Source of the DNA: Candidatus Atabeyarchaeum deiterrae
GTDB lineage: Archaea; Asgardarchaeota; Atabeyarchaeia; Atabeyarchaeales; Atabeyarchaeaceae
Assembly: GCA_037310415.1 (NCBI GenBank)
Contig: CP147780.1
Span: 1,312,001-1,376,000, forward strand
DNA length: 64,000 bases
Reading direction: 5' to 3'
Under the pieces are notes generated by a model that was not told where the DNA came from, did no database searches, and worked only from the letters and a program-made list of their open reading frames with translations. Positions 7,976-13,103 of the stretch are shown here, one piece after another (the first letter of the stretch is position 1; every line of letters begins with the position of its first letter). Both the position numbers and the translations under genes were made by a program.

Positions 7976-9052
7976 TTACCCTAATTCCTTTTTCCAGGTT
8001 CTCACTTTCTCGAGAATTTGCTTTTTCTCTGATAGTGACAGTGCAAGCCCTTCATGGTACTGGAACATTTTTCTTGAGACAGAACCCATATCGAGATAAG
8101 CCTTGTTCCAGAGTCCCATCTTTCTAAACTCGTCTCTAACTTTTTCGATATTGTCTGATATGAATCTAGCTGGCAAATCAGCTTGTATCAACCTCTCAAG
8201 GAACTCAAGCATAGTCCGAGGATCTTCTTTGGGCATCTGAGGAAGCTGTTCGATTATGGCCGCTTTTCGCGGGAGGTACTCTTTTTCAACCACAGGCTCC
8301 TCAGCCTTAACAAAAGGTACAATGGGGCGACCAGTAGCGCTCGATTCAGCAAATTTCTGAACAAACTTGGATCCTTTCTCCTGATCCTCCTTGAGAAAAC
8401 GAATTATGCTAGCAGGACTCTCAGCTGATGCGCCTCCTGTTCCAGCCGCAACAGATGTCTGCACTGTACCCGTATGAGCCATAACAGGCGCTTGTCTTAT
8501 GGTAGGCGTTAAGGGCTCGACGAGTTCCTCTATCTCTCTCCAGGACTCCTTGAATTCCCTTCTTACTTTCTGATCGAATTTCTCATTCTCTTTTCTCGCC
8601 CAATCATGTATCTTGAGCCTGCCTTCAATTGGCTTGGTTGACAAGAATTCCAAAACACTTCGTATGAGATGCTTCTTCTGCGTCTGTGCTGTTACCATTC
8701 CGCCTTGATACTTGTCAACGGCAACGAAAAACGACACGTCGAAGGTTTCCTCGGGTTCATTCAACATATACTTCCTGTCTTCAACAAATCCTTTCAACAG
8801 CTGCTTAAGCAGTAACTCGTCTACGTCTCCTTGTTTTGGTATTCTGACCGAGAGCGTGGCTGAGCTTCCTGCTCTTCTCATCACTCCGTCTCTAAACTCG
8901 ATCTCCTTAGTCTCGACTTGCTCGCATTCCTTGTTCTCATCACAAGAGACACAAGGTATCCCTCGCCTCGGATATTTCTCGCAGGATACTGGTGTGACTC
9001 TGAAGAATTCGTCTAATACTTCTTCGGGAATTGTTATCTTCATCAAAAGCAT
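7976..9052 (-). CDS. ARPC4 (Arp2/3 complex p20)-like N-terminal domain + low-complexity linker + helical C-terminal domain
   Basis: Collinear matches to recalled eukaryotic ARPC4: KQGDVDELL ~ KQADEIEKIL, EPEETFDVSFFV ~ KPVEGYDISFLI, KKHLIRSVLEFL ~ KHKLVDFVIHFM, KIHDWAR ~ SVNARAR. ORF extends to 9097. Confidence 0.72.
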   Translation of the reverse strand: MLLMKITIPEEVLDEFFRVTPVSCEKYPRRGIPCVSCDENKECEQVETKEIEFRDGVMRRAGSSATLSVRIPKQGDVDELLLKQLLKGFVEDRKYMLNEPEETFDVSFFVAVDKYQGGMVTAQTQKKHLIRSVLEFLSTKPIEGRLKIHDWARKENEKFDQKVRREFKESWREIEELVEPLTPTIRQAPVMAHTGTVQTSVAAGTGGASAESPASIIRFLKEDQEKGSKFVQKFAESSATGRPIVPFVKAEEPVVEKEYLPRKAAIIEQLPQMPKEDPRTMLEFLERLIQADLPARFISDNIEKVRDEFRKMGLWNKAYLDMGSVSRKMFQYHEGLALSLSEKKQILEKVRTWKKELG

Positions 9053-9306
9053 TGTTCCCCCAATCTTTTGACCATGAGGACTCACATTGATACCCACACG
9101 TGTGGCGCGTATGTCATTTCAACAAGATCGTACAACTATATTTTTAAGTATAGCCTGTAATTTAACTATTTGCCTTACCCAGACTCAAGATGGGGAAGCA
9201 GACGGAGATTCGCAATGACGGTGAAGTGACGGCACATCAGGCTTCTTCCTTCAATGAGCAGTACAGCTTCTCGGAGTCACTAGGAATCTTAGTGAGGGCA
9301 TCCAAT

Positions 9307-9591
9307 TTGCCTAAAGTGAAGTTACGCCTATTGGGTCCGTTCTGGTTTTCGACGGGAGTAAAGGAAATGGATACTGAAGGTAATACTGTCGACGAGGTAA
9401 TATCCAAGTTCGTTCAGAAATTCAAAGACAAGATTCCAAAACCTTACCTCGTGGACAGCAGTCTGCATCTTCATTCTCTAACATTGATTCTCCTCAACGG
9501 TTCAGACATCGAATTTGTCGAAGGAAAAAGAAGTGCGAAGTTGAAAGATGGAGATGTCATAGCAATAGCGCCGCCAGTGTCAGGCGGATAG
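9307..9591 (+). CDS. moaD: MoaD/ThiS/SAMP ubiquitin-like sulfur carrier
   Basis: ILLNG..LKDGDVIAIAPPVSGG C-terminus; near AOR; probable TTG start at 9307 (ORF from 9190). Confidence 0.85.
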   Translation: MPKVKLRLLGPFWFSTGVKEMDTEGNTVDEVISKFVQKFKDKIPKPYLVDSSLHLHSLTLILLNGSDIEFVEGKRSAKLKDGDVIAIAPPVSGG

Positions 9592-11210: not shown

Positions 11211-13076
11211 CTAAGTCCAGAGATCTTTTGCTATGCTATCCAGCCCCAGCTCGATAAGCTTCTGTTTGGTCGGTTTTCCTTCGGGCGTCCATCCTCGGAT
11301 GCGGTAGTAATCGTCGAGTTGTATTTTCAGATTTGGTACCTTGCCTTGGGTTCCCCCTTCAGCTAGCGGTTGGGTAAGCAGCTTAGGGTAATCACTGTCG
11401 TCGCGTTTCACTCCACACCTGACACTAAATGCTCTCTTTACGTTAACAGCTCTTTCACCTATTTTCACCAGTTCAGGCATCTTTAGATCAACTCCCGTTG
11501 CAGCGACTGTAGCAGCCGCTATCAGCGAAGGCAGAAATCCGACTCCGGCATAGGCGCACATCACTGTCGCGCTTGCTGCATGCATCAAGTTCTGCATCTT
11601 GACATTCAGGTCGCCTTTTCCTTCATCCTTATGTCGATCCAGTCTTTTCATTACGCCAACATCTGGGAAGATTATGCCTATCTCCGGTGCGAGCGGAAAT
11701 GCGTCAAAATGGTATGCACCACGCGTGGACGTAGCGTAGGCCGCAGCCAAGCTGAAGAATGCTCTAGGATCGTGCATAGGCACAGACATCCCCTTAGTGT
11801 GCACGGCATATTGTTCTGAGCCTTTGCCGATCTTCTTTGCCGCTTCTCTAACGTCGTCTGCAAGGACGTTTCCAAACCCTTTTCTGAAAGCCATATCCTC
11901 AATCAACTGCAGAATTACCTTGGGGTCGCCCCACTTAATCTCCAATCCTCCGGTGTCTTTGTTGTTAATAATGCCCTTCTCGTATAGAGTCATGGCAAAG
12001 CCAATGGATGCTCCAGCTGATATTATGTCTATTCCGTATCTGTTGCAGAGTTCGTGGGCTTTGAAGACAGATTCGATGTTATCATTCATTAGCAGGGTTC
12101 CGAAGCTGGCCATGCCCTCGTACTCAGGGTTACCGCCCTTGATAGGAGCGTACGGTCCTTCATTCACTTCGATGTATCGTGCACAACCGATTGGGCATCC
12201 ATAACATGGCTGTGGATGTTTCAGGTACTTATTGGTGATGACACTAGCTGCGAGTTTTTCAGCACCCTCTGGCCAATAGCCCTTCTGCCAGTATTTGATC
12301 GGCACATCGCCGACTTCATGGTATGTGTCCAGCCATCCACAGTTGCCATGCGGCTTGAAGAGTGATACCGTCAGGAGGTGGTTGTCGATCAGTTCTCGGG
12401 CTTTGTCGGTAACTTCTTTGAATTTCTCTGGGTTGGCAATTGGTACTTTCCTGGTTCCCCTCACTGCTATTGCTTTGAGTTTCTTTGATCCCATGACTGC
12501 GCCCATTCCGCATCTTCCGGCGGCCCTGTGTTTGTCGTTGATTATGCACGCAATCTTCACGAGTTTCTCTCCGGCTGGTCCTATTGAGGCTACCTTAATC
12601 TTGGGGTCATTAAGTTCCTTCTTGATCGCGTCCTCAGTCTCAAACGTGTCCTTTCCCCAGAGTTTGCTTGCGTCCTTGAGTTCGGCTTTCTCGTCGTGAA
12701 CGAAAAGGTATGTGGGTTTCTCGGAGACTCCTTGAATGGCTATTCCGTCAAATCCTGTCCATTTTAGTTCTGCTCCCCAGAACCCTCCCGAAGATGACTC
12801 ACCAAAGATTCCAGTTAGTGGAGACTTCGATACTACGGTGTGTCTACCGCAGCATGGAGCTGCGGTCCCAGTCAGCGCTCCCGTCATGATATAGATCCTG
12901 TTCTTGGGACCGAGTGGATCTACGGCAGCAGGCACCTCATCGTACAGCATCTTGGCTGAAAATGCGCTTCCGCCACCAAACTTTGTGAGCAGGTCCTGAG
13001 ATAGATCTTCGACTTTGATCGTTTTGCTGGTCAAGTCTACGCGGAGCAGCTTTTGCCAAAAACCACCTTTTTCCAT
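11211..13076 (-). CDS. aor: Tungsten-dependent aldehyde:ferredoxin oxidoreductase family
   Basis: KSPLTG, IGPAGE, AAGRCGMGAVMGSKKLKAI, CxxCPIGC, PEYE, HDPR, YYRIRGW; GAGGTGA SD (ORF to 13088). Confidence 0.95.
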   Translation of the reverse strand: MEKGGFWQKLLRVDLTSKTIKVEDLSQDLLTKFGGGSAFSAKMLYDEVPAAVDPLGPKNRIYIMTGALTGTAAPCCGRHTVVSKSPLTGIFGESSSGGFWGAELKWTGFDGIAIQGVSEKPTYLFVHDEKAELKDASKLWGKDTFETEDAIKKELNDPKIKVASIGPAGEKLVKIACIINDKHRAAGRCGMGAVMGSKKLKAIAVRGTRKVPIANPEKFKEVTDKARELIDNHLLTVSLFKPHGNCGWLDTYHEVGDVPIKYWQKGYWPEGAEKLAASVITNKYLKHPQPCYGCPIGCARYIEVNEGPYAPIKGGNPEYEGMASFGTLLMNDNIESVFKAHELCNRYGIDIISAGASIGFAMTLYEKGIINNKDTGGLEIKWGDPKVILQLIEDMAFRKGFGNVLADDVREAAKKIGKGSEQYAVHTKGMSVPMHDPRAFFSLAAAYATSTRGAYHFDAFPLAPEIGIIFPDVGVMKRLDRHKDEGKGDLNVKMQNLMHAASATVMCAYAGVGFLPSLIAAATVAATGVDLKMPELVKIGERAVNVKRAFSVRCGVKRDDSDYPKLLTQPLAEGGTQGKVPNLKIQLDDYYRIRGWTPEGKPTKQKLIELGLDSIAKDLWT

Positions 13077-13103
13077 TCGACATTTCACCTCATTCTTACT
13101 CTT

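Follow-up and report, generated by a model that had tools for sequence, protein, structure and literature searches.

What does a protein resembling one subunit of the Arp2/3 complex do in an archaeal genome in which ARPC2, ARPC3 and ARPC5 are not detected? The question is raised by a gene on the minus strand of a 64,000-nt stretch of Candidatus Atabeyarchaeum deiterrae (GCA_037310415.1, CP147780.1:1,312,001-1,376,000, forward strand; this whole stretch is hereafter the window), where positions 7976..9052 encode a fusion of an ARPC4-like domain with a C-terminal module, referred to below as P0001. ARPC4-like genes have for years been listed among the 'eukaryotic signature proteins' of Asgard archaea, without other Arp2/3 subunits (PMC7522288). 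By combining profile searches, structure prediction and a survey of 400 Asgard genomes, we find that P0001 is almost certainly an Asgard ARPC4-like protein, and it is the sole one in its genome (one contig of 2,756,679 bp, 97% complete). Its ARPC4-like domain is predicted to form a symmetric homodimer, replacing the ARPC2/ARPC4 heterodimer, and the module fused to it is a widespread Asgard domain.

Relationship of the N-terminal domain to ARPC4

The ARPC4-like domain spans residues 1-170 (8543..9052, minus strand), is modelled as an alpha/beta fold closing in a long helix, and can be connected with ARPC4 both through intermediate sequences and through its predicted structure. A phmmer search over 1.84 billion cluster representatives returned only 12 proteins, which were close kin and stand-alone relatives of 150-165 aa; the latter match P0001 residues 10-160 (E 1.7e-10 to 2e-4), and several of them pass the Pfam ARPC4 model PF05856 (46.7, 40.7, 38.1, 25.8 and 23 bits; cut-off 22.2). 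A profile built from Atabey sequences only aligned with the profile of the stand-alone family over 144 columns (hhalign probability 99.5%, E=1.3e-22), and the joint profile found ARPC4 in the PDB (3dwl_F, E=1e-12; 1k8k_F, 4e-12), placing profile positions 46-153 against ARPC4 residues 57-166. A scan of the whole genome with PF05856 was empty. Matches of P0001 itself in a phmmer search of the PDB were at chance level, for example uS17m and the V-ATPase B subunit, and were set aside.

Structure prediction, which is independent of this chain of sequences, points the same way. In the first AlphaFold2 (AF2) run, on the full-length protein with 13 close homologues, the N-terminal domain stayed below a predicted local distance difference test score (pLDDT) of 50 and the C-terminal domain alone was confident; residues 1-178, modelled with a 28-sequence alignment, reached a pLDDT of 86.2 and a predicted template modelling score of 0.77. 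With this N-terminal model, the top nine Foldseek matches in the PDB were all ARPC4 (1k8k_F, E=2.4e-7, TM 0.67/0.71), followed by ARPC2, and VIA-align superposed it on the ARPC4 chain 1tyq_F with Z 15.2 and a root-mean-square deviation (rmsd) of 2.4 Å over 156 of 166 residues (runners-up: ARPC2 at Z 8.7, all others at most 5.1). A preliminary description of this DNA had aligned the first ~160 aa along ARPC4 by eye and had named the lack of a profile or structural match as the outcome that would count against it. Both kinds of search were run and both gave significant matches, so the collinearity stands and that objection falls away.

The likeness to ARPC4 (p20-Arc, PF05856; chain F of 1K8K, 1TYQ and 3DWL) takes in the alpha/beta fold, the long C-terminal helix and the whole 166-residue chain, together with two collinear motifs common to both proteins: an N/S-S strand motif and a strand of the form P-E-E-x-F/Y-D-V/I-S-F-F/L. 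Against this, identity is ~15%, and P0001 alone misses the Pfam model.

A predicted homodimer and a four-cysteine cluster

In the eukaryotic complex, ARPC4 pairs with ARPC2 through long helices, as seen in the 1K8K structure. When two copies of the ARPC4-like domain were predicted together, the interface score ipSAE was 0.79, 0.76 and 0.69 (0.00 in three controls), above a roughly calibrated mark that is reached by 20 of 30 solved homodimers and by 1 of 23 proteins solved as single chains; contact agreement in the dimer runs was at least 80% and partner pLDDT at least 83. The predicted interface is symmetric and is built from helix 76-95 and the long helix 125-170, with antiparallel contacts 136:159 and 148:148. 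Its core is the long C-terminal helix of residues 123-166 (8555..8686, minus strand), which holds a tryptophan, W151, that lies within the interface and is at least 90% conserved in the Asgard ARPC4-like family (28 sequences), whereas aligned eukaryotic ARPC4 has Gly or Ala at that position. The homodimer suggested in the preliminary description is thus borne out by complex prediction, with pairing via the long helices (ipSAE 0.76 against 0.00 for the control). The modelled pair may echo the solved ARPC2/ARPC4 pair, from which it differs in being a homodimer and not a heterodimer; what such a prediction conveys is likeness, not binding.

Four cysteines, C24, C34, C37 and C43 (C-x9-C-x2-C-x5-C; 8924..8983, minus strand), form a cluster near the N-terminus. 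All 28 Asgard ARPC4-like sequences keep C24, C34 and C43, while C37 shows at least 90% conservation; together the four probably make up a structural zinc site. The preliminary description had presented the cluster as an extra of this copy; the four cysteines are there, but because they are kept across the whole Asgard ARPC4-like family they are a family hallmark and not a peculiarity of P0001. Eukaryotic ARPC4 and PF05856 align only past the Cys segment (from ARPC4 residue 57), so that the first ~45 residues of P0001, which hold the cluster, are without a sequence counterpart there; eukaryotic ARPC4 is not known to have such a cluster, which fits these alignment starts.

A C-terminal module shared by many Asgard proteins

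Beyond the long helix P0001 has 190 aa that ARPC4 lacks, comprising a linker and the C-terminal module (C-module). The flexible linker, residues 171-273 (8234..8542, minus strand), begins with a variable A/T/P/G-rich stretch (~180-215), and residues 166-265 lie below pLDDT 50 in the full-length AF2 model. An A/T/P-rich linker had been anticipated, and one of ~100 aa at low confidence is present, but it is not featureless, for two conserved islands follow the variable stretch. Island 1 (residues 216-226; 8375..8407, minus strand; alignment A1) is a short helix of the type I-I/L-R/Q-F-L-K-E-D, and its region is also matched in Lokiarchaeial proteins of 455-470 aa (profile positions 7-60). Island 2 (residues 234-275; 8228..8353, minus strand; alignments A1, A6 and A7) closes with an invariant LPxxP at the entry to the bundle, and its prolines P271 and P274 are invariant in all aligned carriers of the module. 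Next comes the ~85-aa helical domain that the preliminary description had pointed out: residues 274-358 (7979..8233, minus strand), predicted by AF2 at pLDDT 84-91 as a bundle of four helices, with an invariant tryptophan, W353, near its end.

The tethered second module is real and by no means confined to this protein. Of the 400 Asgard genomes searched with its profile (alignment A6), 141 have it, the best E beyond the window's own family being 2.3e-20, and in alignment A7 the columns P14, P17, L28, L81 and W96 are invariant. P0001 has the LPxxP lead-in, the four helices, the invariant Pro/Pro/Leu/terminal Trp and the C-terminal position behind a disordered linker that characterise the module. 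In every carrier read, it is preceded by low-complexity or Pro-rich sequence and placed at the C-terminus or close to it; most carriers of 195-358 aa have coiled-coil N-termini, and the longer Lokiarchaeial ones add a charged coiled-coil tail after the module. A second carrier is encoded in the same genome outside the window (377 aa; G000:C1:1753246-1754379, that is L048:1477-2610, minus strand); its long N-terminal part resembles a coiled coil, its Pro-rich linker contains PPP runs, and the four-helix bundle with the terminal Trp follows. Searches of the C-region and C-domain profiles against the PDB gave nothing meaningful, and Pfam gave nothing on 15 members.

One large group is a Lokiarchaeial family of carriers of 455-750 aa with at least 476 members, among them Lokiarch_37830 (P0070), which shares the same C-terminal half with P0001 (linker motifs, LPxxP and bundle; E down to 2.3e-20) and differs in its 300-aa N-domain, which is unrelated to ARPC4, and in the long charged coiled-coil tail that many members add. 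That N-domain has no Pfam or PDB match by profile, and a language-model atlas places it in unnamed Asgard clusters only; kinship with the ARPC4-like domain was considered and ruled out (hhalign probability 0.1%).

Besides the Atabey clade, two metagenomic proteins have the ARPC4-like domain fused with the C-module, namely P0018 (on a contig of 1.4 kb) and P0023 (N-terminally truncated). In the ARPC4-like domain tree all these fusions fall together, with a Shimodaira-Hasegawa-like approximate likelihood-ratio support of 96 and with P0018 as a long branch, which is consistent with a single fusion event.

Distribution of the ARPC4-like domain and the actin genes of its host

Across the 400 Asgard genomes, 96 (27 of 85 genera) carry an ARPC4-like domain, almost always in single copy and mostly in open reading frames (ORFs) of 150-200 aa. 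These stand-alone proteins share with P0001 the domain, the four Cys, the Trp and the single copy number. They end after the long helix, whereas P0001 (358 aa), P0018 and P0023 go on into the linker and the C-module; moreover, the divergence of the Atabey branch has taken it out of reach of PF05856. Two kinds of long form occur, belonging to the window's own family (ORFs of 370-380 aa) and to two families of small genomes, and among the 96 genomes the P0001-type architecture occurs only in the window's own family. In the small-genome fusions (P0020 type), an ATC_hydrolase/V4R-like domain stands in front of the ARPC4-like domain and a Cys/His module behind it. As in P0001, the ARPC4-like domain is there one module of a larger protein and the only copy in its genome; the partner domains on both sides are different ones, the C-module is lacking, and the third Cys is replaced in some. 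Three such three-domain fusions (L055:947-2170, L057:979-2280 and L058:952-2082) always adjoin a Meth_synt_2 gene (cobalamin-independent methionine-synthase-like), and two of the three have Ser in place of the cluster's third Cys.

At 28 ARPC4-like loci no neighbour was common across families, and stand-alone copies had no conserved actin-related gene nearby. In one genus the stand-alone gene (L024:2129-2554, with matching ORFs in L025-L031) adjoins a Roadblock/LC7 gene (35.7 bits), and genes for an archaeal pilin-like protein, an EF-1 GNE-domain protein and a HIT-domain protein lie nearby at the same loci.

The genome of P0001 has one ARPC4-like gene and, in a whole-genome scan, only one actin-family gene (454 bits). 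Since this is the single actin match in a 97%-complete closed genome, there is no Arp paralogue and no Arp2-Arp3 pair. Whole-genome Pfam scans gave a best E of 0.15, below the cut-off, for ARPC2 and no match for ARPC3 or ARPC5 (such models may miss deep homologues, and the WD40 protein ARPC1 was not searched). Gelsolin-domain genes and a weak full-length profilin-like match are present. A canonical Arp2/3 complex is unlikely in a genome with a single actin in which ARPC2, ARPC3 and ARPC5 are not detected; in this, too, P0001 is set apart from ARPC4, which works beside all of these subunits and an Arp2/Arp3 pair.

The gene and its surroundings

The enclosing ORF (7976..9097, minus strand) would give 373 aa from a GTG, while the ATG at 9052 gives 358 aa, the stop codon being at 7976-7978. 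A search of 5.8 billion proteins returned 16 relatives, of which 12 are full-length (360-364 aa, 63-68% identity); all are annotated 'hypothetical', and one comes from a named Atabeyarchaeia genome. The full-length homologues align with no frame problems and with a mean column identity of 77% (alignment A1), which shows the gene to be real and conserved, and they share its start position, so that the extent of 7976-9052 given in the preliminary description is correct, stop codon included. A GGGGG run 4 nt upstream of the ATG (9057..9061, minus strand) may serve as a Shine-Dalgarno-like element, and an AT-rich stretch further upstream of the gene (~9137-9147) is a putative TATA-like box.

Flanking genes in the window encode a DUF4147/MOFRL glycerate-kinase-like protein, a ThiS/MoaD-like protein, a flavin amine oxidase, an aldehyde:ferredoxin oxidoreductase (AFOR) and a GH35/42 glycosidase. 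The ThiS/MoaD-family gene (9190-9591, plus strand), divergent from the ARPC4-like gene, encodes a protein with a Gly-Gly end and an N-terminal extension of ~55 aa and lies near the AFOR gene (11211-13088); a molybdopterin or sulfur-carrier function is probable, with no link to the ARPC4-like finding.

A neighbourhood of another kind was found around the C-module in one Lokiarchaeial genus, in three genomes of which a carrier of 455-456 aa is followed after 27 nt by a same-strand gene for 209-210 aa (L088:1017-3034, L089:993-3016 and L091:1042-3065). The downstream product of L089, the one of the three run against the PDB, matches solved Asgard profilins (5zzb, 5yed, 5zza and 7pbh; E down to 3.8e-9), and carrier and profilin-like gene look like a two-gene operon. 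In two other genera examined a different gene stands beside the carrier; the adjacency being confined to one lineage, the link to actin that it offers is suggestive only.

Discussion

We propose, as a reading that stands at about an even chance, that P0001 is a zinc-stabilised homodimeric scaffold in the place of ARPC2/ARPC4 that binds actin filaments and presents two tethered docking modules to a shared partner. On this proposal, the ARPC4-like domain would dimerise by antiparallel packing of its long helices, the four Cys would hold a structural zinc ion, and the dimer would sit as a small scaffold on the side of an archaeal actin filament, as the ARPC2/ARPC4 pair does. The ~100-aa flexible tether of each subunit would carry a docking module recruiting a shared partner of the Asgard actin network, such that the protein would be a bivalent adaptor between filaments and partner and not part of a branching Arp2/3 machine. 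A link to actin is supported by the fusion of the C-module to an ARPC4-like domain, by the adjacency of a carrier and a profilin, and by the gelsolin-domain and profilin-like genes in the genome.

Several points weigh against this scaffold proposal. P0001 itself matches no Pfam family (hmmscan, E up to 10) and no NCBIfam model, and does not reach the PF05856 cut-off of 22.2 bits; the Atabey-only profile has no ARPC4 match in the PDB, so the sequence link to ARPC4 is transitive, and the homology is founded on intermediates plus fold. The dimer prediction may partly be a memory of the ARPC2/ARPC4 pair, which is already solved, and its calibration is only rough because the pair was predicted on a custom alignment. 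The genes around P0001 are metabolic, and only the sister genome or close kin preserve their arrangement. The profilin adjacency comes from one genus, in three kin genomes that are not independent. Finally, in one Lokiarchaeial family (f20) the module is present in 94 of 135 genomes and the ARPC4-like domain in 1 of 135, with no systematic co-occurrence; module-rich families being mostly without the ARPC4-like domain, module and domain are not obligate partners.

The alternative that survives best, possible though we would not favour it, is that the ARPC4 fold has a non-actin role in these archaea, as a generic dimeric adaptor or peptide-binding scaffold docked to other Asgard machinery, and was recruited to actin only later, in eukaryotes. 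The genome in which no other Arp2/3 subunit and no Arp paralogue was detected, the metabolic neighbours of P0001 and the 28 stand-alone loci free of any conserved actin-related neighbour would all suit such a role. So would the small Asgard genomes, in which the same domain is joined with a ligand-binding domain of the ATC_hydrolase/V4R-like kind and with a Cys/His module, a combination that suggests sensing and not the cytoskeleton. The structural neighbours that rank next after ARPC4 and ARPC2 would fit as well: they are secretion chaperones (Z 4-5), and the fold bears a distant likeness both to type III secretion chaperones and to YbjN proteins. Yet the fold's only characterised members of high similarity (Z 15) are subunits of Arp2/3 that bind actin filaments. 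Moreover, actin, gelsolin and profilin-like genes occur in the genomes that have the domain, and one Lokiarchaeial genus has a C-module carrier in an apparent operon with profilin.

A bolder form of the scaffold proposal, which we hold to be doubtful, would make the LPxxP and bundle a previously undescribed docking domain for the actin network of Asgard archaea. Perhaps descended from the Vps28 C-terminal domain (CTD), this domain would tie the ARPC4-like homodimer, the coiled-coil proteins and the profilin-associated Lokiarchaeial family to one partner, and the zinc-stabilised homodimer would be the ancestral ARPC2/ARPC4 clamp, from before the duplication behind the eukaryotic heterodimer. 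The genome being without detected ARPC2, ARPC3, ARPC5 or an Arp paralogue, the 'ancestral clamp' is something that we infer from homology.

It is unlikely, in turn, that the bundle is a diverged Vps28 CTD through which the protein couples the ARPC4-like dimer to partners of the ESCRT-II/III type (ESCRT, endosomal sorting complex required for transport), linking actin to membrane remodelling. Three structure searches rank the Vps28 CTD first among named folds. VIA against 48,161 solved chains placed 2j9u_A at the top (Z 11.5, rmsd 2.3 Å, 85 of 94 residues aligned), but this Z lies under the caution level of ~13 for helical bundles, and generic bundles, among them CheA P1 and designed proteins, are close behind, with four-helix bundles at Z 10.0 and 9.6. 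Foldseek on the full-length model gave 2j9w_A/B as the only rows with probability 0.99 (TMt 0.66-0.69), but at E 0.16-0.21, which is not significant; the atlas structure search listed eukaryotic VPS28 over residues 274-358 (TM 0.48/0.32). Sequence comparison was negative throughout: no VPS28 Pfam match in 15 module sequences at E up to 10, no match of the module profile in the PDB, and hhalign probabilities for that profile of 0.2% against the Vps28 of this genome and 2.6% against a 13-sequence Asgard Vps28 CTD profile. In favour of a Vps28 origin, the Vps28 CTD is itself mobile in Lokiarchaeia, where proteins of ~800 aa match PF03997 at positions 87-180 only, so that the CTD appears to be reused as a module in large proteins, and in one Asgard family the ARPC4-like gene lies ~7 kb from Vps28; against it, the genome has its own bona fide Vps28 in a distant ESCRT cluster. 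By superposition the modelled bundle appears similar to the Vps28 CTD (2J9U, 2J9W) in its four helices, size and topology, and both occupy a C-terminal position behind a linker; it differs in having no sequence similarity, and in the LPxxP lead-in, the GL-x-L loop and the terminal Trp, and likeness at this level is common among helical bundles. We therefore treat the Vps28 CTD as a lead, the best structural analogue of the predicted bundle, without sequence evidence of homology.

The loci concerned may be recorded here. ARPC4-like and Vps28 genes ~7 kb apart occur at G113:C3:107041-115092, G114:C1:1026571-1034519 and G115:C28:14048-22116, and not in the other families checked by coordinates. 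Lokiarchaeial ORFs of ~790-800 aa that match the VPS28 CTD part are recorded at G146:C36:77934-78206, G260:C145:1169-1447, G266:C44:12782-13054, G267:C1:88783-89052 and G268:C1:154076-154348. The ESCRT cluster of the P0001 genome, outside the window (L003; G000:C1:342655-346227), encodes a Vps28 homologue of 303 aa (59.9 bits) flanked by ORFs of 262, 265 and 210 aa; as read from their sequences, the 262-aa ORF looks like a ubiquitin E2 variant (UEV) and the 265-aa ORF like a winged-helix protein of the ESCRT-II type.

It is very improbable that P0001 belongs to a complete archaeal Arp2/3-like complex whose other subunits have diverged so far as to go undetected: ARPC4 is the structural core of the eukaryotic complex and Pfam models can miss deep homologues, as they do with P0001, but the closed genome with its single actin-family gene has no Arp2/Arp3 pair and no ARPC2, ARPC3 or ARPC5 signal, nearly all of the 96 Asgard genomes with an ARPC4-like domain have just one copy of it, and a homodimer is predicted with high confidence.

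The Asgard ARPC4-like family itself is already known: its stand-alone proteins have been listed under 'Arp2/3 complex subunit 4' among the eukaryotic signature proteins (PMC7522288), and the family is among the catalogue matches in bioRxiv 10.64898/2026.10.28.762692. In the papers searched we found no structure, metal site or function for Asgard ARPC4-like proteins, no naming of Lokiarch_37830 and no description of the form fused to the C-module; the Atabeyarchaeia genome paper does not mention ARPC4. What is new is the fused architecture, the C-module as a widespread Asgard domain, and its two independent associations with actin-related genes.

These results give the family three testable handles, namely a conserved four-Cys site, a confidently predicted homodimer and a fusion pointing to a candidate partner module. 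Binding of the dimer to archaeal actin would reveal what the Arp2/3 core did in the time before branching nucleation; should there be no such binding, ARPC4 would exemplify a fold whose use with actin began only in eukaryotes.

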